Assembly: GCF_013315695.1 (NCBI RefSeq)
Contig: NZ_CP054353.1
Source: Escherichia coli
GTDB lineage: Bacteria > Pseudomonadota > Gammaproteobacteria > Enterobacterales > Enterobacteriaceae
DNA: 64,000 bases
Reading direction: 5' to 3' (one strand)
The notes under the pieces are model-generated. The model was not told the DNA's origin and made no database searches. It worked only from the letters and a program-made list of their open reading frames with translations. Position 1 is the stretch's first letter; the number at the start of each line of letters is the position of its first letter. This document shows, in pieces, positions 15,100-32,155 of this stretch. The position numbers were made by a program, and so were the translations under genes.

Positions 15100-18000
15100 C
15101 TACCCGTCGGCGTAAGGTATCAGCGGCTGTGGCGGTAAATCCATATCGCCCTGCCATCCGGCGGCGGAATACCGTACATAGAGCTGGAAGTGACTTGGCG
15201 CATAATCCTTCGCTTTCTGGATATCAATCGCCGTACCAACAAACCAGTTGGACGTGACGCGACGTTCAAGTAATGCCCGTGCCGTGTAACCAAAACCCTG
15301 ACTGCTGCTACCACTGTTGGATTGTTGTGCTGCTTCTTCCTGCCAGTCGCTCGGGATCAGGTTCATCAGCGGATAACGCGGCATGGTTTTGGTCCGTGAG
15401 TGCGACCATGAACCTGAAGCCCCCAGCTCCCACGACCAGTTTTCCGTCCGCTCGCGCCACATCACCGGCACCGCAAACGACAGGTATTCCTGCGGGCTGT
15501 AGTAACCGCCCTGACCCAGTGAGTACTCACTCAGGTCTTTGTCGTAATGCCAGATCATGTTGTTCAGGCCAATGGTAACGCGGCGGTTATTCTCGTTGAT
15601 AATTTTATAGTAATAGCCCGTCATCCAGCGCACGCGCCAGTTATCTTCGACATTTTTACCGGTTAACTGATCACCGCTAAGCGATGCCCAGACGCCGTTT
15701 GCTTCACCTTTATCGTAACTCAGACTTAGCCCCACGCCGTCGGCACGCACGCCGCCCCATTTTTTCCCGGTGTTGCCCGGAGAATCTTTCTGCCCGCCGA
15801 AGGCCAGCATTGAGCTGGAGACAGGCCGACGATGTGCGTCAACGGTATAGCCGAGTGGGCCGATACTGTCGCTGTAACTGACAGCGCCGACCACATCCAC
15901 CACGTTGAATCCCATCGGTGTGGTGCCAATATCCCAGCTCCAGGTGTCGTTGCGCCAGCCAACCGCCACGCTTGTGCCGGAGTCTGACTGACTGCGGTTG
16001 CCGCTACACTCCTGCAGCGTACAGGTTCCCCAGTTATCATCCCATTTGCCATCGGCATTAGTGGAGAAACTGCCGACGTTCATATTGACGAAATCACTGC
16101 GAAAGAACATCCGACCGTCAGAATACGGCGCATCCACCTGCAACATGGTGGTATGTGCTTTCAGGTCAGAATAGCCGCCAGTGCCGTTTGATCCCCAGTA
16201 GTCGTGCTCCAGGGTGACATTGAGATCCTGCTGACGATAAAGATCTGCCGCATCGCTGCGCACGCCACGTTTCAGCCAGTCATCCTGCTCATCATTACGG
16301 GTAAGGCGGGTAAAGGTGTCGTTATCCTGCGGACGTGTCGTCGTCACGCCGGAAGCGATCATCGCATCTTTGTAGGTTTCCAGCGCCTGTTGCGGTTCAC
16401 CCGCCTGCGCCTCAAATTTTGCGCCATCGCGCAGTACCATCGCGCTTTCCATCGACGGCGGCTGAGATTTTGCCTGCAGGATCAGCCTGTTAAATGTCTG
16501 CTGTGCCGCTGCGGTATCGCCAAGCTGTGCCTGCACCAACGCCACGCGCCGCTGAGTGTTCAGCGAGGCGTTATCGGTGGCGGGAAGTTTCGCCAGTTGA
16601 CTGCGCGCCGCGGCTTTGTCGCCTGCGGCAATATCCACTTCCGTCAGGCCAAGAATGGCATCGGCGTTATTCGACTCCCGCGCCAGCACATTCTGATACG
16701 CCGTGCGGGCGGCGGTGTAATCGCGTCGCTGTTGTGCCCAGTCAGCCAGCGTAAGATCAATGCGCGTGGAAGGCGGTTGCTGGCGTAGCATCGCCTCCGC
16801 ATCCTGTTCTTTGCCACTGTCACGCAGGCGATTAGCCGTTTCCAGAATCTGATCGCTTTGCAGGCGATTCACCAGTTCCTGAATGTTGCCGTTCCACCGG
16901 GCGCGCGGCAGATTGTTAATATGCGCCAGCGCCGCCCGCTCCTGATCGTGACCGGAGAGATACAGTCCGTAAGCGTAAACCTGGTCCGGGTCGTTCGGCT
17001 TCTGTTGCGCCAGGTTACGCATTAACGTATCAGCCTGGGTACGTTGTCCGGCCTGCCAGAGATCCTGCGAAAGCCGGTAAGTTACCCACACACTGCCGGG
17101 GTCCAGCGCCAGTCGTTGCCGCTGAAGTGCTGCCGCCTGCGCCCATTTACCCTGATTTTCCAGCGCCTCCGCCTGCTGCGATAAGCGATCGTTTTGCAGA
17201 CTGCGTTCGATATCATCAATACTGCGCCGCTGGCTGGCAGAAAGTGACGCAATAAACGCTTCAGCTTTTTCCGGCGATTGCTGCCGATAAATGTTCGCCA
17301 GTCCACGCACGGCGTTAGTGTTGCCGCTGTCCATACGCAGGGTCTGCTGATAATAACGTTCGGCGGCGGGGTAATCTTTTCGCGCCATTGCCACATCACC
17401 CAGCCCCAGCACCGCATAGCTGTCGGTGTTATCGACATTGCGTGCCTGCAGGAACAGGCGTTCCGCCTGATCAGGATTGTTCGCTTTCAGTGCGGCATCG
17501 CCCTGTTGGATCGCCAGCCAATAACGGTTCACTTTCAGCAAACTGTTCCATTTGTCGTTGTTGCTGCTGTGCGGGCCCAGCGCGAGGGCTTTTTCCAGAT
17601 TTGCCACCGCATTCGCGCGATCGCCTTTCTGTGAATAAGCCTGGCCCAGCGCCCCCAATATTGCACCAGAGTTTGGGTTATCAATATTAAGTTTTTTCAA
17701 CTGACTAATTGCCTCGTTGCGACGAGATGCAATTTGCGCCACTGCACTCCAGTATTCCAACGCCATGCCGACATCTGACGGTACTCCGTTAAATAGCTTG
17801 TCATAACTGACAATAGCCTCCTCGTATCGCCCGGAGATAGCTTGTAAACGCGCCATTTGCAATGCCTGGCGCCCCTCAAGCGAAGAAAGTCGCATGACCG
17901 TACGCGATGCTTTATATATTTTTGAATCTGGGGCGATCAGAGAAAGTCTGGCAAGTTGTTTGTGTGCTCCGTCAATATCCCCCTTGCGAAGCAGATAGCG

Positions 18001-18219
18001 AAACCGAGCCGCAACGACATCAGGATTATTGGGCTCCACCAATTCAAGGCGATAAAGCGACTGCTCCACCAGTTCTTCACGGTGAGAGTCTTCTCCCAAT
18101 CGAATCTGTGCCATCAGCAGTTGATAAGCAGTTGGCGTGGCTTTTGCCATCGACATTACCGCCAAACCAAGAGATATGGTGAGTAAATTTAGGGTGAATT
18201 TGTGCATACCTGGACTCAA
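15100..18219 (-). CDS. BcsC-like TPR-repeat / outer-membrane export subunit of a cellulose-synthase-like system
   Basis: 1039-aa ORF with signal peptide, long TPR region and C-terminal beta-barrel-like tail ending PLIPYADG; last gene of the minus-strand operon; GC-rich (about 55-60 percent). Confidence 0.8.
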   Translation of the reverse strand: MSPGMHKFTLNLLTISLGLAVMSMAKATPTAYQLLMAQIRLGEDSHREELVEQSLYRLELVEPNNPDVVAARFRYLLRKGDIDGAHKQLARLSLIAPDSKIYKASRTVMRLSSLEGRQALQMARLQAISGRYEEAIVSYDKLFNGVPSDVGMALEYWSAVAQIASRRNEAISQLKKLNIDNPNSGAILGALGQAYSQKGDRANAVANLEKALALGPHSSNNDKWNSLLKVNRYWLAIQQGDAALKANNPDQAERLFLQARNVDNTDSYAVLGLGDVAMARKDYPAAERYYQQTLRMDSGNTNAVRGLANIYRQQSPEKAEAFIASLSASQRRSIDDIERSLQNDRLSQQAEALENQGKWAQAAALQRQRLALDPGSVWVTYRLSQDLWQAGQRTQADTLMRNLAQQKPNDPDQVYAYGLYLSGHDQERAALAHINNLPRARWNGNIQELVNRLQSDQILETANRLRDSGKEQDAEAMLRQQPPSTRIDLTLADWAQQRRDYTAARTAYQNVLARESNNADAILGLTEVDIAAGDKAAARSQLAKLPATDNASLNTQRRVALVQAQLGDTAAAQQTFNRLILQAKSQPPSMESAMVLRDGAKFEAQAGEPQQALETYKDAMIASGVTTTRPQDNDTFTRLTRNDEQDDWLKRGVRSDAADLYRQQDLNVTLEHDYWGSNGTGGYSDLKAHTTMLQVDAPYSDGRMFFRSDFVNMNVGSFSTNADGKWDDNWGTCTLQECSGNRSQSDSGTSVAVGWRNDTWSWDIGTTPMGFNVVDVVGAVSYSDSIGPLGYTVDAHRRPVSSSMLAFGGQKDSPGNTGKKWGGVRADGVGLSLSYDKGEANGVWASLSGDQLTGKNVEDNWRVRWMTGYYYKIINENNRRVTIGLNNMIWHYDKDLSEYSLGQGGYYSPQEYLSFAVPVMWRERTENWSWELGASGSWSHSRTKTMPRYPLMNLIPSDWQEEAAQQSNSGSSSQGFGYTARALLERRVTSNWFVGTAIDIQKAKDYAPSHFQLYVRYSAAGWQGDMDLPPQPLIPYADG

Positions 18220-19968
18220 TCAGGTGTTAACTCACTTTTTATTAAAAAATGAATAAGCGCAGTTCCCTGCCCTGCCTGTTTAAGGCCAGAGCAGAGAGCT
18301 ACAAAGATGAATTACTGTTGATGAGGATTCAGACGACGATGGCTAATGATGCGTAGCAGACGCCAGACGACCCACGCCAGAAGCACCACACTCAGCATTG
18401 CCATTCCTGCCAGCAAAACAGGATGTTTCGCTAACATATATTGCGCGCGCTCAATCCAGGGAAGATGCCCCACATAATAGGTATCTCCAACCCGTAAACT
18501 ATCGACACCTGATTCACGAATAACCGCAACTGAGCCAAATATATTGCCACGTTTTGCACTATTAATTAGCGCATTATTAAGTAACTCGTCACCACGTGCC
18601 CCCTCGGTCATTAATGCAATTACGCTACGTTGGGGATGATATGGAGACTGGAAACCAACCACCGCGGCCATTGGCGATGGAGAGATCATGCTTGTTTGTG
18701 TTTCAGTTTTTTGGTTGTTTTCATCTGTCATAATTTGTGCGTTATCAGAGTGCCGCATTGGCGTTTTTACCCAACTAGCGGTTGCATCAATGAGCAGATT
18801 AATTTGCTGCTGACCTGCAAATTCTTGCGGAATTGCCCCTATCAGCAGGATGTCTGCATCCTTATTCTGGATGGAGCTTATATCATCAGTAACTGTCAGA
18901 TTAATTGCCGGAAATCCGGTTTGAGCACCAATCAATCCAAGGGTATTTAGCAATATTTCAACCTGCGTTGTACCAGGATGTTCAGGCATAACGATGACTG
19001 TTTCAGATAAATCGGCCATACGGCTAAAAGGAAAGCCTGAACTAGCAAAGGCGCGTAAATCTGGCATGGCGATAAAGTGATGATACTTTGAAAAATCGAT
19101 AGTAGAATCATCAGCAATAACTGCATGGTTATTCAGAGGCCGGGAAATAATACAACTCCCGTCATCAGTACTCGGTATCGTATTAACGTACTCAAAATTG
19201 AATCGTAATTGATTAAGTGCCCCCAATGTCAGCGCCGGAATGGTAATTTTATTATTGCTATCTGACAATTCTTGCAATAACGGTAAATGTAATAGCAGTC
19301 GATCAGTAGTCGAGCGCGGGCTTGGGCGAAAAGATTCAATGTACTGATTATTAAGATTAACATCAATACGAGAACCGCCTACCATTGGCGTGGTATAGCG
19401 ATAGTTAATCTTCATATCAACCCCACTATTACGTAACAGAAAGAGATCAGGCGGCAAATTGAATGAAACATTAATTGCTGCGATCTGCAGGGCACTTGCC
19501 TGTAACTGTCCTTCATAGTTTTTAAGCTCTGCGAAAGTTACAGGACGATCAGTGCGAACCCAGTTTGGCGCATCATAAGGTTTGCGTGGCAGCAGTGGTT
19601 TCACGTCATTTACAACCACACTATCGCCGCGAAACAGTATATTTCCCTGAGCGAGACCTTTTGCTGCCTGTAATAAATCTTTGTCATCGCGGCCCCAAAT
19701 TACCAACAATTTGACGAAAGGATTTTGTGGATGGTTAATCATCTTAATAACAGGTGCATTCACCAACGGATGATCACGCAAAAAGTCTGGCCGTCTATTG
19801 TTAGTGGCAAAGACTATAGCATTGCTTTCCGGTAACTGATTATAAAAAACTGGAAATTGATGACCACGCCACCCCGATTGCGAACCAAACCACGAAGCGA
19901 CAATTGCAGATGCTTGCTGCAAACCAGCCTCCGGTGGGCCAGCAAAAACCATCGGCAATGTATTAGTA

Positions 19969-19977
19969 CGGTTATCT
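19969..19977. repeat. IS1 target-site duplication, left copy (CGGTTATCT)
   Basis: Identical 9 bp at 20746-20754. Confidence 0.9.
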
Positions 19978-20032
19978 GGTGATGCTGCCAACTTACTGAT
20001 TTAGTGTATGATGGTGTTTTTGAGGTGCTCCA

Positions 20033-20308
20033 GTGGCTTCTGTTTCTATCAGCTGTCCCTCCTGTTCAGCTACTGACGGGGTGGTGCGTAACGGCAAAAG
20101 CACCGCCGGACATCAGCGCTATCTCTGCTCTCACTGCCGTAAAACATGGCAACTGCAGTTCACTTACACCGCTTCTCAACCCGGTACGCACCAGAAAATC
20201 ATTGATATGGCCATGAATGGCGTTGGATGCCGGGCAACAGCCCGCATTATGGGCGTTGGCCTCAACACGATTTTACGTCACTTAAAAAACTCAGGCCGCA
20301 GTCGGTAA
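20033..20308 (+). CDS. insA: IS1 InsA
   Basis: 91-aa [33 protein letters not shown]. Confidence 0.9.
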
Positions 20309-20730
20309 CCTCGCGCATACAGCCGGGCAGTGACGTCATCGTCTGCGCGGAAATGGACGAACAGTGGGGCTATGTCGGGGCTAAATCGCGCCAGCGCTGG
20401 CTGTTTTACGCGTATGACAGGCTCCGGAAGACGGTTGTTGCGCACGTATTCGGTGAACGCACTATGGCGACGCTGGGGCGTCTTATGAGCCTGCTGTCAC
20501 CCTTTGACGTGGTGATATGGATGACGGATGGCTGGCCGCTGTATGAATCCCGCCTGAAGGGAAAGCTGCACGTAATCAGCAAGCGATATACGCAGCGAAT
20601 TGAGCGGCATAACCTGAATCTGAGGCAGCACCTGGCACGGCTGGGACGGAAGTCGCTGTCGTTCTCAAAATCGGTGGAGCTGCATGACAAAGTCATCGGG
20701 CATTATCTGAACATAAAACACTATCAATAA
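20227..20730 (+). CDS. insB: IS1 InsB frame (expressed as InsAB' by programmed -1 frameshift)
   Basis: Overlapping -1 frame ORF downstream of insA, typical IS1 arrangement. Confidence 0.85.
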
Positions 20731-20745
20731 GTTGGAGTCATTACC

Positions 20746-20754
20746 CGGTTATCT
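20746..20754. repeat. IS1 target-site duplication, right copy (CGGTTATCT)
   Basis: Matches 19969-19977. Confidence 0.9.
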
Positions 20755-21455
20755 CGCGGATCAAAGAATGGCACAGGAAAATATGAAAGATCATTTTGCA
20801 GATTGAGTTTCTGGACGACCAGACCAAGTTCACTGTTACGTCCAATATCAAGCCACAAGTTATTGCTGGTTGAGATTTCACAGCTATTCTGATAATGGCC
20901 AATTAATTCAAAACGCAAACGATTAAAATCCGAGAAATACAATGGGTTAAGCGTTATTTCCGCCAACGTTTTTTTTCCCAGTTGTTCTTTGGTAATCGGT
21001 AATACTCCCATCAACTCATCATTAAGATAAACTTTAAGCTGCGACTGAACGGGGATCAATGACGGTGACGGAGTATATTCAAGCTTTAGTTTTGCATCTG
21101 AAACTATCTCATCACTGCGCATACCAAATTCAATATACCCCAGTGGGTTGACACCATTCAAAACGATGTTACCAGGCGCTGGTGATATTTGTGTAAATGG
21201 AAGTTTAAAATGATAAGAGGAATCTTTCGCATAAACAGAGACGTTAGACTTCTCTATAGCGGGTAATACTATCCCGGAGGGAGACTTATGGATTATGGTA
21301 TCTAAAGCTGATGCAGCATTTGCCTGGTATAACCATAAAAACCCTAAGCAAATTATTGCAGTAATAAATTTTAAATATTTTCTTTCCATTTTAAAAATTT
21401 CAAGAGACATAATCAACACAAATAATATATTTAGTTGGTTAAATATAATCTAAAA

Positions 21456-23570
21456 CTAATTCTCACGACTATTTTTTAGTGTCCGCAGAATATAAAAAAT
21501 CATATTGTAATACCCTTTAAGAGAGATGATACATACGTCAAAAAAGCTCTTTAGTATATTATCTTGCTTAATTTTATCATTCCACTCTTGCCATAATGAA
21601 TCACGTGAAAATGTTACTCTGACATAATTAATATTCTGTTCATAAGTCATTGGCAAAATCTTCAGACCAATTTTATTTTTGTAAGCATGAACAACTTTTA
21701 CAGGAATATCACATTCCCCTTTATTATCACTCAGATAAAGAGACAAATGCTGAGTTTTTTCGATTTCTTTTACATCGGAGATGTGATCAACAATAACCCC
21801 CAGGCCACCTTCGGAGAAATCAATAACAGAACAGGGATAGCACCGTCCATCTGCTAGTTTTATCACACCTTTAAAAGAAACATCTATCCGAGGAGAAAAG
21901 CGGACCTGCTTTTGTTCAATAGAGACTGCCAGGGTTGCGCCAATAATAATTGTATTATAAATCAACCAAATCAAACAAAATAAATTTAATATAACAAGAT
22001 GACCTTGCAATCTATAAATATTAATAACACCTATTATTAGTCCAATTAAATTTAAAATAGCAAAAATAAGATAAGGATATGAGATTCGCCAGTCAACAAA
22101 TTTATTTTTTATTAACCCGCCCTTGGCAGTAACGTTAAATCGCCCTTTAGCTGGCGCAAGTAAGGCAACAAGCGTTGGTAGTGTAATATACCAGGCCAGA
22201 ACCATTTCATAAATTTCATTCCAAAATGAATGTCTGTATTCACCCTGAACTCTTGAGTTAGTAAAAATAATCACAAATAGATAAGGTAGAACATAAGACA
22301 TAATATCTGCAACCGACGCATCTATCAAATTAACTGAAAAGAAAATAGGACATAGTGGCGCGAATAAAAAAATCAGCCGTGGAACCCCTGATAAAAAATG
22401 CATCATGCTACTGAGATAGCAAAGACGCTGTGATAACGTCAGCCCTTTGCCCAATAATGGATTATCAATACGTAAGATTTGGATCATGCCCCTGGCCCAC
22501 CGTATTCGTTGTCCGATATGAGCAGACAATGTTTCGGTAGCAAGTCCAGCGGCCAGAGGATAGCGAAGATATGCGGAGCTGTACCCTGCACGATGCAAGC
22601 GTAGCGATGTATGCGCATCTTCCGTTACCGTTTCAACTGCAATGCCTCCAACCTCATCTAATGCAGACCTACGGATAACCGCGCATGAACCACAAAAAAA
22701 TGAAGCATTCCATGTATCGGTGCCATTCTGGATTAAACCATAAAAAAGATGTCCTTCATTTGGTTTCTGCCGAAATTGCCCCAAGTTTCGCTCAAAAGGA
22801 TCGGGAGAGAAAAAATGATGTGGTGTTTGCAGCATCGATAGTTTTTTATCGGCAATAAACCAGCCCATCGTTTTTTTTAAAAAAGAAACGGAAGGAATAT
22901 GATCACAATCGAAAATAGCAACAAATTCGCCGTTAGCTATTTTAAGCGCATTGTTTATATTTCCAGCTTTCGCATGTTCATGCGTTTCTCTTGCAACATA
23001 GCAAATACCTGACTCATCAGCAAATTTCCTGAATTCGTCTCTGGCACCATCATCAAGAAGCCAGACATGTAATTTATCTTTTGGCCAGTCTAAAGCCAGC
23101 GCTCCATAAACTGTATTCTTCACGACAGTAAAGGGTTCATTATATGTAGGTATGAATATATCGACATCAGGCCATTCTTCTTTATTATCTGGTAAAGGTA
23201 TGCTTTCCCTGTTCAATGGGAAACAGACCTGAAAATAACCAAGTAATAAAACAAACCATGCATACGTTTCAGCAGCTAACAGCGTCAATGAAAAGAAGCT
23301 GTCAGGAAACTCATCAAGAATAACTGAAGAAGAGTAACGCCACCATAGATACCTTGTGGATATAAGTATACCAATACCCATTAAGATCAGGGTAATCATC
23401 CTTCCCCTGAGCAAATTGAGGAGAAAAACAGAGATACAAATGATAATCGAGAATAGTGTTTGTTGATAAAAACCGAGCGGCTGTTCAACAATTGACAAAA
23501 AAACAAAACATAGCAATATAGCAACAAAAAGAAAAATTTTGTTGTATATTTCTTTATTTTTTAAATTCAT
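21456..23570 (-). CDS. BcsA-like processive family-2 glycosyltransferase with C-terminal PilZ domain
   Basis: 704-aa multi-pass membrane ORF with FDCDH and QRIRWARG (QxxRW) motifs and PilZ signatures RFSPR / DFSEGGLG; AT-rich (about 25-35 percent GC). Confidence 0.85.
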   Translation of the reverse strand: MNLKNKEIYNKIFLFVAILLCFVFLSIVEQPLGFYQQTLFSIIICISVFLLNLLRGRMITLILMGIGILISTRYLWWRYSSSVILDEFPDSFFSLTLLAAETYAWFVLLLGYFQVCFPLNRESIPLPDNKEEWPDVDIFIPTYNEPFTVVKNTVYGALALDWPKDKLHVWLLDDGARDEFRKFADESGICYVARETHEHAKAGNINNALKIANGEFVAIFDCDHIPSVSFLKKTMGWFIADKKLSMLQTPHHFFSPDPFERNLGQFRQKPNEGHLFYGLIQNGTDTWNASFFCGSCAVIRRSALDEVGGIAVETVTEDAHTSLRLHRAGYSSAYLRYPLAAGLATETLSAHIGQRIRWARGMIQILRIDNPLLGKGLTLSQRLCYLSSMMHFLSGVPRLIFLFAPLCPIFFSVNLIDASVADIMSYVLPYLFVIIFTNSRVQGEYRHSFWNEIYEMVLAWYITLPTLVALLAPAKGRFNVTAKGGLIKNKFVDWRISYPYLIFAILNLIGLIIGVINIYRLQGHLVILNLFCLIWLIYNTIIIGATLAVSIEQKQVRFSPRIDVSFKGVIKLADGRCYPCSVIDFSEGGLGVIVDHISDVKEIEKTQHLSLYLSDNKGECDIPVKVVHAYKNKIGLKILPMTYEQNINYVRVTFSRDSLWQEWNDKIKQDNILKSFFDVCIISLKGYYNMIFYILRTLKNSREN

Positions 23571-23643
23571 GGTACGTAACTATTCATTAATACTATGATT
23601 TGACTTTAAAAAAACGAATGAATGATGTCATAAAAATAAAATT

Positions 23644-24984
23644 TTAACACCAGGTTACCTGTGCTCTTCCATTTTGCTTACTTTTGTATAATCGTTCATC
23701 TGCCAGTAATTTCAACCGTTCAATGTTATTCATGCACTCGTCAGTATTGGCAACACCAATACTGCAACTACAATTCAATCCACCTATTGAGAAATGGACT
23801 ATTCTGTGCAAAATTCTTGATAATTGATTTATATCTTTATCATGATAAATAATAGCGAACTCATCGCCACCAAATCGATAAACTTCACCTTTGCTGAGGG
23901 GTAATTCATCCTTAATAAGATTAACAAGTCTTATTAGTACTTCATCACCAAATAAATGACCAAACTTGTCATTAATGGTTTTAAACTTATCTACATCAAA
24001 CAGGCATAAATATCCAAAATCCTTACTCAGCATCCTGATATTTTTATCAAAAACACGACACCCAGAAGCTCGCGTCAATGCATCGTAAGTCCCGGAATCA
24101 TATATTTCTCTAATTGCATCAATCTCTTCAACGTTAAAGAATAGATTTTTTCCATGCAAATTATAATGATTATTCGATAATATAGATTCTTTTTCTGACT
24201 TACCCTTATTTATGATTTTTTGCATTAATTTAATGTAATGAAAATATATTAACCCCGCAGAAATCGCCGATGTGAAAACAAAAAACAAGCACATATAAAT
24301 ATACTTATCTTTTTTATAGGCAACAATAAACATTACTTCCGGGATATAAGAATAAGCAAGAGTGATCGCTGATTTCTCAAATACAGCATCATTAATCAAA
24401 AAATCATCACCCGCGATTTTCTTTTCATTATCATTGATATCATAAAATGAGACATATATATTTTCCCGTTCACCTGACTGATTTCTTATCAAAGCCAAAT
24501 AACGTTCAGGATCTACCACTGATATCAAACTTGTTCGTTTCGAAATAGGATGAGCATAATAAATATAATATTTATTATTTAAACTAATAATCCCTCTTTC
24601 AAAGATGTTACTTATACGGATAGAAGAAACTATGCCGTCACAAAAGTTATCCCCTTCCGTTGTAACTTTGGCGCATTTACCATCGCTAATGATATAGGGA
24701 CCTAGATCATAAATATATTCTGGTTTTTGAAAGTCAGCAAAACTATTGCGTATCCTTTTTAACAACTCTTCCGGAGAAATATCTAACCCATAAAATACAT
24801 TATTAAATACTAAGCGCCGATACTCAGACACATTAGCTATAGCAAGCCCACTATCTATGATCGATACCTTTACCGAATTGACTCGATCTTTAACGTAAAT
24901 AGTATACAGATAACATGTCATTACAGAGACACATAAAAAATACAAAAAACAGATCCCTGCTGCCTTTTTTTTATACTTAAACAT
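23644..24984 (-). CDS. membrane-anchored diguanylate cyclase (GGDEF)
   Basis: 446-aa ORF with two TM segments flanking a periplasmic domain and an intact RFGGDEF active site. Confidence 0.85.
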   Translation of the reverse strand: MFKYKKKAAGICFLYFLCVSVMTCYLYTIYVKDRVNSVKVSIIDSGLAIANVSEYRRLVFNNVFYGLDISPEELLKRIRNSFADFQKPEYIYDLGPYIISDGKCAKVTTEGDNFCDGIVSSIRISNIFERGIISLNNKYYIYYAHPISKRTSLISVVDPERYLALIRNQSGERENIYVSFYDINDNEKKIAGDDFLINDAVFEKSAITLAYSYIPEVMFIVAYKKDKYIYMCLFFVFTSAISAGLIYFHYIKLMQKIINKGKSEKESILSNNHYNLHGKNLFFNVEEIDAIREIYDSGTYDALTRASGCRVFDKNIRMLSKDFGYLCLFDVDKFKTINDKFGHLFGDEVLIRLVNLIKDELPLSKGEVYRFGGDEFAIIYHDKDINQLSRILHRIVHFSIGGLNCSCSIGVANTDECMNNIERLKLLADERLYKSKQNGRAQVTWC

Positions 24985-24988
24985 TGTG

Positions 24989-27337
24989 TTATTTTCTTTT
25001 TTTCGGTTTACTGTCTATATGCCACTCTGAAAACGGTAATGGTTTCTGGTATAAATATCCCTGAACATGGGAGAAGCCTAATTTTTGTAATTCTCTGGCC
25101 TGTCTTTCTGTTTCAACACCTTCAGCGATCACTGGCATATTTTCTTCTCGTGCAAGACTAGATATAAAACACACAACCCTGTTAGTTTCATCGAAAATAC
25201 CAGAAGTAAATTCTGAATCAATTTTGATGCTATCAGGTCTAACTTTGTATAATTTTTTCAAGTCAGCTAACCCACTGCCAAAATCATCAAGGGAAATTTT
25301 AATGCCATTTCTTCTTAAAAATTTTATATTATTATAAAAACTATCATTTATATCTTTCATTGCTGACTCGGTGATCTCCAGACAGATTTGTTCCGTATTT
25401 ACGCCAAATTTATTAATTAAATTCAAAACGCGGGTATGGAAATCAAATTCATTTAACTGCCAAGGTGAAACATTGATATGCAGAAGAAATTCTTTCGTAA
25501 TTTCATACTCACGACTAAATGAACCAAATTCACCAATAGCCGTTTCAAGAACAAAATCACCCAGTTCTTTAATTAAGCCAATTTCTTCAGCAACAGGCAC
25601 GAAAACTGATGGTGGTATTGCACCATTTTCAACGGACAACCAGCGGCATAACGCTTCGGCGCCAACAACATTATTACTATCCATATCAACAATCGGTTGA
25701 TATACTAAATAAAACTCACTACTCACAATTGCTTTTTTTATATTTCCAGCAACCCAAACCTTTTGATCAAGTTCATGAGCCTTAATATCATCATAAAATA
25801 TAAATTCAGATTCTTTATTTTCTCGCATAGCTGTTAATGCCAGTTTCAGTTTACCTTCATAAATCGACAAACTTTCCCCTGAAAAAGTTTCACAAATAGC
25901 AACCTTATGAACATAAATATTTCTTATGCAAAAAATATGCTCAGGAAAGTTTAAAACAGATAATCGTTCTATGAACTCTTCACAATGAGTGTGACACAGC
26001 AACAAATATGTTTCAGTAGAAATTTTTATAATATCACAATATTTAGAATACTTTGCTGATATCTTTGATTTTATATCATTAATGATCTCATAAAATTTCT
26101 GACTGCCATGTATAGCCTCTACAAACTCTAATCCATAGATACAAAGCATACCAACTGCTGAATAGGTTTTATTATTAGTTTCAATGACAGATTTGTTGAT
26201 ATAGAAACAACTTCCTTGTTCATAGGAAACAAGATTAAGTAACCGTTCCATCCGCTCTTTGTATTTGTCACTAATGTTATTAATGATTTTTTTGAGCTCA
26301 ATAATCTCACTACTGTCATTTTGCACGATTTCGATTTTATCATTTCGGTATACTGAGCTCGCTAATTTTTTCAGATGCTCAATTAGTTTACCAGAGTCGT
26401 TTCTAACCTTTTTTGTTATCTTTTCAAAAAGGTACCATAATAAACAGAAACAAACCAAACCACATACAAACATCAGTGTAAAATATTTATTTATGTTTGT
26501 GTCTTCTGCTTTTTGATAATGAAAATAATGAAATTTGACATCAGGAAGCCTGGGGAGTGAAATAATATCGTCCGTATAATTACCGTTATTATTACTTATG
26601 TTATAACGTCCAGATGCATCTCTAACAATAAGATGTAACATTGATTGTTCATTACCTACCATAATCCTTTTATTCTGTTCCATAAATAAAATATCTGCAT
26701 TTCCTCCTAATTTGTCCAGGAAATTGCTAAAATATCTTTCATCAAGATCTAAATGAATTAACTTCAGAGCAAATGAATCTTTTTCTGCTTCGGCTGGTCG
26801 TAATGAAAACGAAAAACATTTTTTCCCGGCAATGCCATAGCAGTTATACCATGGTGACCATTTTGAATAAGTCCCTGTTGGTAATTTATTCCAGGGACGG
26901 GATTCAGGATCAAAGTAGTTATCGTTAATTTCACCATCAGGGCTAGTAAAAGCATGACCTGGCTCTGATTGCCCCAAAAATTTAACATCACCATTATCAG
27001 TTCGAATAAAGCTAAGATACTTTCCATTATTTAGCATTATTCCGACTAAATTAACAGAATCTATCTTTTTCATCCGATGAAGAACTGCGCGTTTTATTTC
27101 ATTTTCATCGTGTAACAGATAAATGGCATCTTTTAAAGCATCCGCCTCTTTTTCAACTTTAGAAAAAAAGTTATTCAAATTATTATTGATAAGTATAAGA
27201 TTAATGCGTGAAGAGTTTTCTGCTATTTTTTTATAAAAATCAATGGCTGTAATAAATGATAAAATAATATAGACAGTGACAGCGAATATAAGCGCAGTGT
27301 TAAATCTTGAGTTTAATTTTTCTGTGATGCTATACAT
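24989..27337 (-). CDS. membrane-anchored c-di-GMP phosphodiesterase (EAL)
   Basis: 782-aa ORF with two TM segments and periplasmic domain; EAL signatures GAEALCRW, LDDFGSG, AEGVE; first gene of the operon, stop 4 bp before the GGDEF start. Confidence 0.85.
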   Translation of the reverse strand: MYSITEKLNSRFNTALIFAVTVYIILSFITAIDFYKKIAENSSRINLILINNNLNNFFSKVEKEADALKDAIYLLHDENEIKRAVLHRMKKIDSVNLVGIMLNNGKYLSFIRTDNGDVKFLGQSEPGHAFTSPDGEINDNYFDPESRPWNKLPTGTYSKWSPWYNCYGIAGKKCFSFSLRPAEAEKDSFALKLIHLDLDERYFSNFLDKLGGNADILFMEQNKRIMVGNEQSMLHLIVRDASGRYNISNNNGNYTDDIISLPRLPDVKFHYFHYQKAEDTNINKYFTLMFVCGLVCFCLLWYLFEKITKKVRNDSGKLIEHLKKLASSVYRNDKIEIVQNDSSEIIELKKIINNISDKYKERMERLLNLVSYEQGSCFYINKSVIETNNKTYSAVGMLCIYGLEFVEAIHGSQKFYEIINDIKSKISAKYSKYCDIIKISTETYLLLCHTHCEEFIERLSVLNFPEHIFCIRNIYVHKVAICETFSGESLSIYEGKLKLALTAMRENKESEFIFYDDIKAHELDQKVWVAGNIKKAIVSSEFYLVYQPIVDMDSNNVVGAEALCRWLSVENGAIPPSVFVPVAEEIGLIKELGDFVLETAIGEFGSFSREYEITKEFLLHINVSPWQLNEFDFHTRVLNLINKFGVNTEQICLEITESAMKDINDSFYNNIKFLRRNGIKISLDDFGSGLADLKKLYKVRPDSIKIDSEFTSGIFDETNRVVCFISSLAREENMPVIAEGVETERQARELQKLGFSHVQGYLYQKPLPFSEWHIDSKPKKRK

Positions 27338-28436
27338 ACTGGTGTTCTGACTAAAATGTTATCAATAATTTCGATATTACATTATATAAAGTTCGGTATA
27401 TGAAATGGTATTAATACTCCTCTTTATGATTTTCTGAATTAAATGATCTCCATTCTGTAAATATATCATAATGAGAAGATTGATTTTCTCTTAATTTACC
27501 AAAGTTATTATCATGCTTATTACTTTAACCAGAATGACATTATCATATATAGCGTTTATACTTTTGCATCTTCCACCCACGCTACCGCCTTTCGTTAATT
27601 TATCAACGAAATAATTTAGATATGAAAAAATCAATATATGACGCCTAAGCTATCACATTATGCATAGTTGCGACATTCACCTCTTTAATTATCCCAAAGA
27701 GGTATTAATGTGAATTCTCTATCATCCATTTTGCTGATTTATCTTTTTTCAGTCATGAGCAATCCGACTCTCTTAGCCAAAATAAATTAATAACCTTAAA
27801 ATGAGGTTTAATCAGAAAGTAGTAGCCACAGCTTGACTATTAAGACTATAAATTAGCCATAACGATGGACAGATAAATATGTTAATGAATACATGTTCAA
27901 TAAAACAATAAGGCACAACGCCAGGCCACCATTTTATTTTAAAAATAAAAGGCTGTGAACTATGCCAGGTATAATCTGATTCTATCGAGAGAGAATTTTT
28001 GTAAGTTACAAATACTGCAAAAGACACATTACACAAAATTTTTAACCACACAAACACCTTGTGTTCTGTATAACAGAACAATAGCTGTGGTCATTTTCAG
28101 CAAGTTTAACTAAAATTATCAAGAATTTTTTTTGATGTATATCAAAAACAATAGTCTTCGCGCATCCGTTACTGCTTAACATTTACCCACAAAGTTCATA
28201 TTTTCACCACACATAATCGTTCACTTCAGAACTTAAAATAATAACTTGCAAAATAACCAATAATTAAAACTATCACTGCATCTAAAAATAAAGATTAAGA
28301 TAACTAAAATTCGTATTATCACGGCATCGTTTATCGCCACCCGTCTCTTAAGAAAAATTTAACTTTGCTATTATCAGTCCTCTCCGAATTTCTCTTCTAT
28401 TTACTGCGATAACCCCGGCGAACCGGGGCATGATGA
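27338..28436 (-). promoter_or_regulatory. 1.1-kb AT-rich noncoding leader/promoter region upstream of the EAL-GGDEF-bcsA-like operon
   Basis: No convincing ORF; strongly AT-rich; sits at the 5' end of a minus-strand operon. Confidence 0.4.
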
Positions 28437-29856
28437 CTATTTCTTATTCGCTTTACGCGCAAGTAACGGGAATATCAGCCCCAGTCCAACCAGGACAAAT
28501 GGCGTCGCAATATTCAGCGCCAACTGAAAAGTCCACTCTGCGGTGAAGGCTTCCATTTTCGGGAAAATCCCTGTCAGGCAGGCAAAAGCGGTAAAGGTAA
28601 AACACCAGATCCCGACAGTCATCGCCAGCGGCCTGTTACGAATAAAGACATACTCTGGTTTATATTTCTGCGCCAGGCGAACGACTGCAATAAATGCAAC
28701 AAATACCCATAAATAACGCAGCGGCATCACTACCGAATTAAGGTTCAACAGCCATTTATAGAGATTGTTCATATCACCAATGCCGAGAGTCGGCAGCATA
28801 ATCAGAATCGCCACCAGTACCAGGGTCAGAAAATAGCCATTAACGGGCGTACCAGAAGCGTTGGTACGACATAAACTGGCTGGAATATATTTGCTATCAG
28901 CATCGCCTAATAGTACTTTAAGCGGCGCATCAATCGAGAATACCAGCGCAGCTACTTGTCCCAGGGTATTCGCAATGGCGTAAATCACCATTAAAGTATT
29001 ACCCATGTTGTAATACTCGCCCAGCTTCTGAAAGGCGTAATACTGACCGTTGGTCATTAAGTCATCCGGGATATTACGCGAATCAAACATCATCCCCATC
29101 GCCAGCGAGCCCAGAATGGCACAAACCGCAACCATCACCGCCAGGCATAACATCCCTTTTGGAAATTCTTTTCCTGGGTTGCGCGTTTGATTAACGTAAG
29201 GAGAAATCTTCTCTGCTCCGCCAACCGCGAAAACCAGCATTGAAATAGTGGTAATGTAGGTAAAGTCGATATGAGGAATGAACGTTTCCCAGGTAATGTT
29301 TGTGGTCGCAATATGCACTTCAGTAATTGCAGGCGCGGTTACCGCCATCGCCACATACAGGAGCGACATAACAAACATCGCAATCCCTGCCACAGAACCG
29401 ACGATTTTCAGCGATTTCATACCGCGTGAAGCAACCCACATAAAGAAGATAAACAGCACCAGCGTTAACCCCTGTAACGCTACGACTGAATATTCTTTGA
29501 TTAACGAACCGTCGCCTTTCATCGCCCAACCGAGCGCAATCAGTATTGCCTGGGGTTTTTGTGCCAGATAGGGAATATGCACTACCCAGTAGGTCCACGC
29601 GGCGAGGTAAGCCAGTCCGGGTCCCATCGTGTGTTTAATCCAGGTACTGACCCCGCCCTTCCCATCTTTGAAGGTCGAGCCTAACTGACCAACAATTAGC
29701 GCATAAGGTGTGAAATAGAGCGCAAAGATAAACACCCATGAAAAACCCCTGGTTGGCGTAGTTATTAACAACGTTGCCAAAACCCCAGACAGTGATAAAA
29801 GACATCAGCGCAATGTTGTACCATCGCAGCTGTTTTTCCTGAACATTCCCAGCCAT
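28437..29856 (-). pseudogene. ycaM: APC-family amino-acid transporter with a frameshift in a homopolymer tract
   Basis: N-terminal frame MAGNVQEKQLRWYNIALMSFITVWGFGNVVNNYANQGF (from 29856) and C-terminal 447-aa frame (28437-29780) overlap in different frames at the A5/C4 run at 29752-29760. Confidence 0.65.
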
Positions 29857-30065
29857 AGACAAATCCTTCGCCAAAATTAAAGGGGCATCTGTAAAACGAG
29901 GGATTATGCGCGGCAAATAAGAAGTGCGGAAATAGCGAAATGCAAAATTATAACCTGCTGCACATTTTATTTTGAAACGAATAAAATTTGGAATAAAGCA
30001 AGTCAGATAGAAGAAACAAAAAAGCAGAGTGTGAAACAGTAAGTTCACACTCTGCGTTAATTCAT

Positions 30066-31214
30066 TTACACGTGAGCAACGGGTTTCGGCGTATGACCGG
30101 CGTTGCGAAGCAGCATCAGCAAATAGATAAACGATACGCTGGCGATCATGATAAACAATAAATTATCGGAGAAATTCTGCATTAGCATGGCAGTAAATGA
30201 CGGGCCAAGCAGACTTCCCACGGTATAGCTCAACAGTAAGGCCTGGTTCATCGCCACCAGTTGATGATGTTCAACTTTCTCGCAAGCCCATGCCATCGCC
30301 ACCGGATATAGCGTAAAGCCAGCGGCACCGAGGATGAATAACGCTGGGGCCATCGCCGCCTGGCTAAGCATCGCGATACTGCCGAGAATGACGACAAAGA
30401 CCTGAACACGCAACACCAGCAGTCGACCAAACTTATCCGCCAGACGTCCAATCGGCCATTGTCCAAGGATACCCGCACTGACCAGTACCGCCATCCAGAA
30501 ACCAATGCTGGCATTGCTCACCCCTTTGTGATTGAGGTACAGCGGCATCAGGCCATATAGAGATCCCAGAACGATTCCTGAGATAATGCAGCCATTCACG
30601 CCAAGCCGCGCCTGACGGAGTTTTAGCATTGACGTAATTGACGTCGCATCATGGTTTTCAGCCTGCTGATTCAGCACACGCGTAAACAACAGCGGTAAGA
30701 TCCCTGCCAACGTCAAACCTGTAACCCACGGCAATACGGACATCAGCTCGGTTGAAACTTTGCTGACCAGTAACTGGCCTAAAAACGTTCCCACGTAATA
30801 AACCATCATATACGCAGCAAGCAAACGCCCACGGTTACGTGACGTCCCACTGCACATCAGCGCGCTCTCAACAACCACCCAAATCATGGCACAGCCGACA
30901 CCGGCGACAAAACGCCAAGCCAACCAGCTCCAGAATCCAATCATCAGGCCAAGGCCGGCACAGCCAGCGGCAAAAATGAAGGAGGCCAGATAATAGCTGC
31001 GGTTAAAGCCAATGCGCTTAATGACATACCCTGTCAGCAATGTACCGACCAGGTTGCCGGTAAAATAGGATGAGCTGACAACGCCTACCTGCCATGTGGA
31101 CATGTGTTCCTGGGCGAGCCAAAGCGGCACGAGTGTATTTAACACTGCGATCGCCAGAGTCAACAAAAGCAGGCCAGACAGCAAAAGCATGACAGGCCGG
31201 GTATACGTGGACAT
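30066..31214 (-). CDS. ycaD: MFS transporter
   Basis: 382-aa 12-TM ORF; synteny. Confidence 0.85.
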
Positions 31215-31528
31215 GAATTAAAACCGTGAGGAAGTTCAAATTTCATGCGCATCATGCCACCGCCAAAAACATTGTCAATGGGTGAAAATACGCGCATATC
31301 GCAGCGGAGGTATTATCGATTTATATTACTCATTCATAACGCTAATGCTGGAGAGACGATTAATCTCATCTGATTGTTTTTATTGATCTAACACAAATTT
31401 CATACGCTTCGTTCAGTCGAAAAATTTCATGGTCACAGCAAACTCATATTTCCCGTCTATGCTTTCAGAGCAATGCATCGCGTCTGACCGATTTCAGACG
31501 TACCACTGACTCTCGAAAGGAGAAGAGG

Positions 31529-32155
31529 ATGACCAAACCGTATGTTCGTCTTGATAAAAATGATGCTGCCGTTTTGCTTGTTGATCACCAGGCTGGTTTA
31601 CTTTCCCTTGTACGGGATATCGAACCCGATAAGTTTAAAAATAACGTGCTGGCGCTGGGTGATCTGGCTAAGTATTTCAACTTACCTACTATTCTTACCA
31701 CCAGTTTTGAAACCGGTCCTAACGGCCCATTAGTTCCAGAACTGAAAGCACAGTTTCCCGATGCACCTTACATTGCTCGCCCGGGAAATATTAACGCCTG
31801 GGATAACGAAGATTTTGTAAAAGCTGTCAAAGCGACAGGTAAAAAACAGTTAATTATTGCCGGTGTGGTAACCGAAGTTTGCGTGGCATTCCCGGCGCTT
31901 TCAGCCATTGAAGAAGGGTTTGACGTCTTTGTCGTGACTGACGCGTCAGGGACCTTTAATGAAATTACCCGGCATTCGGCGTGGGATCGCATGTCGCAAG
32001 CAGGTGCGCAATTGATGACATGGTTCGGCGTGGCTTGCGAGCTGCACCGTGACTGGCGTAATGATATTGAAGGACTGGCGACGTTGTTCTCTAACCACAT
32101 TCCTGATTATCGTAATTTGATGACCAGTTATGACACGTTAACGAAGCAGAAATAA
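31529..32155 (+). CDS. ycaC: isochorismatase-family hydrolase
   Basis: 208-aa ORF starting MTKPYVRLDKNDAAVLLVDHQ with catalytic Cys context VVTEVCV. Confidence 0.85.
   Translation: MTKPYVRLDKNDAAVLLVDHQAGLLSLVRDIEPDKFKNNVLALGDLAKYFNLPTILTTSFETGPNGPLVPELKAQFPDAPYIARPGNINAWDNEDFVKAVKATGKKQLIIAGVVTEVCVAFPALSAIEEGFDVFVVTDASGTFNEITRHSAWDRMSQAGAQLMTWFGVACELHRDWRNDIEGLATLFSNHIPDYRNLMTSYDTLTKQK

Follow-up and report, generated by a model that had tools for sequence, protein, structure and literature searches.

An 11-base deletion breaks the putative permease gene ycaM in a small group of Escherichia coli genomes

The GadC antiporter and YjeM belong to the APC superfamily, and intact YcaM matches the NCBIfam models of both as well as the Pfam family AA_permease_2. 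In transporters with the APC/LeuT fold the unwound glycine motif of helix 1 forms the substrate site, and we take G25-F26-G27 of YcaM to be this motif, judging by the structures of AdiC and GadC. The intact protein aligns with GadC (PDB 4DJI) over residues 32-437 (E = 7e-14) and scores 101.1 bits against PF13520 (AA_permease_2, cut-off 27 bits), whereas its scores against the equivalog models NF053662, TIGR03813 and NF011775 (102 versus 640 for GadC, 80.8 versus 650, and 161.6 versus 400 for YjeM) lie far below the cut-offs. YcaM is a distinct paralogue that is related to the glutamate/GABA antiporter group without being a member of it, and ycaM encodes a putative, uncharacterised inner-membrane permease of the APC superfamily.

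The window analysed here is a 64,000-nt stretch of an E. coli chromosome (contig NZ_CP054353.1, assembly GCF_013315695.1) with the gene order pflA, a bcs/GGDEF/EAL island, ycaM, ycaD, ycaC, dmsCBA and a P2-like prophage. The broken gene is the orthologue of K-12 ycaM (b0899; the allele used here is WP_000918512.1 from strain MS 21-1), with which it shares the locus, the dmsABC-ycaC-ycaD-ycaM synteny and 100% identity outside the lesion; identity to the common A/B1-type alleles is about 97%. The downstream neighbour differs: the window has the bcs/GGDEF/EAL island where K-12 presumably carries ycaN-ycaK. The coordinates of the features of the locus, and of the lesions found in other lineages, are collected in Table 1. 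The terminator-like hairpin downstream of ycaD suggests that ycaM may be transcribed on its own, and the locus is probably still transcribed, as both the promoter-like site and the Shine-Dalgarno region look intact; promoter-like sites are weak evidence here, however, with two found versus 3.9 expected in shuffled sequence.

Table 1. Features of the ycaM locus in the window, and lesions of ycaM in other lineages
Feature	Position	Strand	Remarks
ycaM pseudogene	28437..29856	-	1420 nt; intact allele 1431 nt, 476 aa
Truncated product ORF	29635..29856	-	73 aa, 37 native and 36 out-of-frame residues; TAA at 29635-29637
Permease remainder ORF	28437..29780	-	mechanical 447-aa ORF from TTG, +1 frame
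Deletion junction	29745..29746	-	11 nt, CTGGTGGTTGT, codons 38-41 region, absent between gene-strand G (29746) and T (29745)
G4T5 run	29741..29749	.	AAAAACCCC on + strand, GGGGTTTTT on gene strand; product of the deletion
Promoter-like site TTCAAA-18-TATAAT	29947..29976	-	about 90 nt upstream of the ycaM ATG; apparently intact; consensus match only
Terminator-like hairpin with T-run	30024..30055	-	just after ycaD; 12-bp stem, 6 GC pairs, TTTTTTGTTT tail; consensus match only
IS2 ends abutting ycaM nt 104	L025, L026:2989/2990		opposite orientations
CAG to TAG, codon 36 (Q36*)	L027:2992
G4 to G3	L024:2990-3000		one G lost

From the native ATG (29856) the ycaM frame reads MAGNVQEKQLRWYNIALMSFITVWGFGNVVNNYANQG and then continues through unrelated sequence to a premature TAA. 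A sequence-only reading of the window had described a broken ycaM frame within 29740-29790, with the N-terminus (MAGNVQ...NYANQG) and a 447-residue remainder in frames offset by one base, and had pointed to a single-base indel at a homopolymer run. The broken frame is as described; the cause is not. In a megablast search of 5426 complete E. coli genomes with the gene (a 1501-base query), four matched at 100%, and the next best match, MS 21-1, spans the query with 1512 bases. In the alignment, 11 bases on the gene strand (CTGGTGGTTGT) that lie between ...AACCAGGGG and TTTTTCATGG... in the intact gene are missing from the window and from the four identical genomes. Compared base by base, the window gene consists of a 111-nt prefix and a 1309-nt suffix of the MS 21-1 gene, 1420 bases in all and 100% identical. 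MS 21-1 ycaM encodes a 476-aa permease, whereas the window gene, with 11 bases fewer at codons 38-41, encodes a 73-aa fragment. Comparison with intact alleles, which the sequence-only reading had proposed as a check, in this way both bore out the broken frame and revealed what had broken it. With its +1 shift and a TAA after 73 codons, the gene is disrupted relative to its intact orthologues. The deletion is the only disabling change in the window copy; the pseudogene is accordingly young, and this genome by itself shows no decay.

The run at the break is a by-product of the junction. In the intact allele (GGGG-CTGGTGGTTG-TTTTTT) the G4 and T6 tracts stand 10 bases apart; the deletion joins G4 to the last five bases of T6, and this G4T5 juxtaposition is new and absent from the intact gene. 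It had been placed at 29752-29760, 11 bases away from where it lies, though still within 29740-29790, and the two frames had been said to overlap only there, whereas they overlap over 146 nt (29635-29780). Removing a single base of the run does fuse the frames, as had been proposed; however, the product is a 472-aa protein without LVVV (residues 38-41) and not the wild type. This hypothetical protein is absent from a collection of 15 billion protein sequences, and a compensatory in-frame revertant with one base lost from the run was rejected on that ground. Homopolymer slippage does not describe the difference either, which amounts to 11 nt as against the 1-2 nt change in a pre-existing run that slippage requires. 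A microhomology-mediated deletion was also ruled out, the placement ambiguity being 0 and the junction lacking a flanking repeat. As in homopolymer frameshifts of the contingency-locus type, the break sits at short runs of G and T and a one-base change alters the frame; in contrast to them, the runs here are only 4 and 5 bases long and the allele is 11 bases away from the functional one. The length of the run did not vary among the 23 sequences that bear the junction (the window, four complete genomes and 18 contigs).

We then asked how widely the junction occurs. A 100-base junction probe matched at 100% in exactly 4 of the 4366 complete E. coli genomes that carry ycaM, namely AF3, AF14 and OZ546911 (UK blood cultures) and MSB1_4I (an Australian rectal swab), which come from at least two projects and countries. 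In the genomes ranked next (25 matches listed), 111 bases align to the probe at 90.1% identity, as the intact gene would. The window is identical to none of the carriers: it has a private SNP at 27235, one mismatch to AF3 in 7.5 kb and 29 mismatches to MSB1_4I in 32.7 kb. All four copies are annotated as 'frameshifted' pseudogenes, with the PGAP label 'APC family permease, frameshifted' in AF3, AF14 and MSB1_4I. Two protein records, EOV64714.1 and EOV74076.1, contain exactly the 73-aa product, the one source name given being 'inner membrane transporter ycaM [E. coli KTE69]'. Among NCBI drafts, Logan assemblies of SRA data and gut metagenome assemblies from ENA, 29 contigs were read that encode this product or a 137-aa GTG-extended form. 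The 11-base gap was the same in all 18 loci that were fetched, one from a KTE-series NCBI draft and 17 from Logan or ENA contigs of separate runs and metagenomes.

These data bear directly on the suggestion that a homopolymer miscount in AAAAACCCC, or another sequencing or assembly artefact, falsely breaks an intact gene. It is true that the break coincides with the G4T5 run and that a one-base deletion would fuse the frames, but the difference measures 11 bases rather than one or two, the intact gene has no such run, and the one-base-corrected 472-aa protein is missing from the 15-billion-sequence collection. The same junction recurs in the four complete genomes and in every one of the 18 short-read or metagenome contigs inspected, from various projects and assemblers; the lesion is thus reproduced in independent sequence data. 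A homopolymer miscall could not produce one and the same 11-base change with different technologies, assemblers and countries of origin, and sequencing error is thereby excluded. We regard the artefact as effectively refuted already, its chances being practically nil, and of the two alternatives left by the sequence-only reading, a sequencing error or a true pseudogene, the latter is upheld.

In order to assess the consequence for the protein, we examined both reading frames. The 73-aa product has no Pfam or NCBIfam match. The 447-aa remainder still scores 95.3 bits against PF13520; it matches profile positions 32-412 only, with the first ~31 positions missing. A crude Kyte-Doolittle hydropathy profile, which is no topology prediction and was not relied on, has its first strongly hydrophobic stretch at residues 33-63, with the deletion at the edge of it. 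From the native start, the shifted frame would yield 37 native residues, roughly transmembrane helix 1, followed by 36 unrelated ones. A frameshift at codon 38 thus leaves at most about helix 1, and the transporter is most likely non-functional.

Two routes could in principle still deliver a working permease. In one, the downstream part would be expressed from an internal start (TTG 29780, GTG 29735 or ATG 29627) as a truncated active transporter. The reading frames that remain are long (447, 432 or 396 aa), the AA_permease_2 match persists at 95 bits, and ATG 29627, the first ATG in the remainder frame past the premature stop (Met81 of the intact protein), follows that stop by 8 nt, which makes re-initiation conceivable; the 396-aa form is also the one that gene callers report, on 67 contigs. 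However, the 20-mers upstream of the three starts contain no recognisable ribosome-binding sequence, the truncated profile match begins at position 32, and helix 1, or helices 1 and 2 together, would be missing from the products; after a restart at Met81, the 5+5 inverted-repeat fold would be without its two initial helices. We therefore consider an active internal-start product very improbable. The other route is recoding, by +1 ribosomal frameshifting (P-site UUU to UUU on GGG-UUU-UUC) or by transcriptional slippage on T5, to give a functional 472-aa permease without LVVV. The sequence of the junction, G GGU UUU UC, allows perfect re-pairing of tRNA-Phe in the +1 frame, so that such a slip is sterically possible, and the promoter-like signal is intact. 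Nevertheless, nothing at the site would stimulate the slip: the A site holds neither a stop nor a rare codon, an upstream Shine-Dalgarno-like stimulator is missing, and the 0 frame runs on for 36 codons. A T5 tract is too short for efficient transcriptional slippage. An RNA element at the break site was rejected, as no Rfam match was found in 27000-31600 at E <= 0.1. Programmed frameshift sites are conserved among orthologues, whereas this site stems from a derived deletion that is rare (4 of 4366 genomes) and the gene lies in a single frame in Salmonella and the other E. coli sequences; the LVVV residues that the recoded protein would lack are conserved from E. coli to Salmonella, and one carrier has acquired a second, 13-nt deletion. 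The likelihood that recoding rescues the permease appears extremely low.

The polarity of the change follows from its distribution. The sequence encoding LVVV is kept in the listed complete E. coli genomes that lack the junction and in Salmonella orthologues of 93% identity, which makes the deletion the derived state. A single flanking haplotype, with only private variants on it, is common to all carriers, and an intact allele otherwise identical to the window ycaM was found on 137 contigs; a shared haplotype around a gene that is otherwise identical to the intact allele argues for one recent event and indicates a single origin of the deletion. The 11 bases at codons 38-41 were lost once, in a forebear of what is now a small E. 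coli clade associated with humans, and the deletion has since been passed on vertically within it. The KTE-series draft (GCA_000408425.1) carries a second deletion, of 13 nt (CGTGGACCTACTG), 146 nt downstream of the first (L004:3258 region, corresponding to window 29588-29600), and three other carriers have private SNPs inside the dead gene. Both are consistent with continued decay of ycaM. The 13-nt deletion was also considered as a frame-restoring suppressor, since 11 and 13 nt add up to 24, and rejected: translation meets the premature TAA before it reaches the second deletion, and gene calls still include the 73-aa ORF, which leaves further decay. Taken together, ycaM of the window is very probably a genuine, recent, single-origin and lineage-specific pseudogene.

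To place this loss in the context of the species, we surveyed the state of ycaM in other genomes. About 1060 of 5424 complete E. coli genomes (~20%) contain ycaD and lack ycaM; in an APEC O1:K1:H7 strain (L022:5087-7072), for example, ycaM is absent and ycaD directly adjoins pflA. The interval from ycaD to pflA varies within the species. Further lesions of ycaM, in lineages that include Shigella boydii and two more complete NCBI genomes, fall within nt 104-111 of the gene, 20 nt or less from the deletion of the window. These natural inactivations in E. coli and Shigella resemble the one in the window in affecting the same N-terminal region and in giving a similar truncated product in gene calls (438 aa), whereas they differ in kind (IS2, Q36*, G4 to G3 or absence of the whole gene) and belong to separate lineages. 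Absence from ~20% of the complete genomes and other lesions in Shigella lineages show that the gene is dispensable, and its loss in the clade studied here may have been tolerated on this account. The K-12 delta-ycaM strain of the Keio collection is viable, and a preprint that used it (bioRxiv 10.1101/2025.07.07.662571) reports a 6-20 times higher tolerance to colistin.

The break in ycaM is an ordinary lineage-specific pseudogene that public records (RefSeq/PGAP) already annotate as 'frameshifted', and its biological weight is small: a single E. coli clade has lost another transporter gene that the species can do without. In practical terms, the frameshift should not be 'polished' away or handled as a homopolymer error. 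The 11-base deletion provides a clean, single-origin clade marker. Its carriers are probably natural ycaM nulls, and with MS 21-1 as a near-isogenic intact comparator they would allow the recently reported association of ycaM loss with colistin tolerance to be tested.

The position of the deletion led us to a further, more speculative consideration. The 11 deleted bases (L002:3156-3166), together with the G that precedes them, form a Chi octamer (GCTGGTGG) on the coding strand of ycaM, which the deletion removes. Local enrichment of Chi was rejected, with only two other octamers in the window (10080 and 32694) versus 1.95 expected in shuffled sequence, and no account connecting Chi with small deletions turned up in a literature search. 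The four lesions of other lineages at nt 104-111 lie immediately upstream of Chi. It is tempting to speculate that the 20-nt stretch CCAGGGGCTGGTGGTTGTTTTTT (codons 35-42, with Chi between G4 and T6) is a mutational hotspot that has suffered independent inactivations, loss of YcaM possibly being selected in host-associated lineages, although we hold this to be unlikely. The lesions at nt 104-111 were drawn from 438-aa GTG-start calls, which arise only for lesions in codons ~19-38, and the clustering is probably inflated because these calls restrict the lesions to that range. Clustering near Chi is a lead, not a result.

The neighbourhood of ycaM yielded several minor observations. Between pflA and ycaM (~15100-27337) lies a second cellulose-synthase-like cluster with bcsC, bcsB, bcsA, a GGDEF protein and a 782-aa CHASE9-EAL protein; with a GC content of 30-46% over 18-28 kb and at a variable spot, this island looks horizontally acquired. 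An IS1 element (20033-20730) splits the bcsB gene of the island in the window, AF3 and MSB1_4I. To judge by match lengths, MS 21-1 and E7-1N7 lack the element, and AF14 has the ycaM deletion together with a bcsB annotated as intact; IS1 would therefore have inserted after ycaM lost its 11 bases. AF14, for its part, has a CHASE9-EAL gene (L023:8213-10560) annotated as two overlapping coding sequences of 738 and 1614 nt, which implies a 1-nt frameshift, a further independent lesion beside the dead ycaM. The low-GC island, too, displays decay within the clade. The 1.1 kb between the ycaM stop and the CHASE9-EAL gene (27338-28436) has ~30% GC and no annotated gene; none of its ORFs exceeds 89 aa, Rfam gave no match, and the stretch is presumably the AT-rich regulatory edge of the island. 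On the other side, next to dmsA, the P2-like prophage (36428-64000) encodes an integrase, a Cox-like protein, a replication endonuclease, and portal, terminase and capsid proteins. Its segment 42273-44008 is 95.9% identical to MSB1_4I between flanks of more than 99.5%, suggesting a swapped module.
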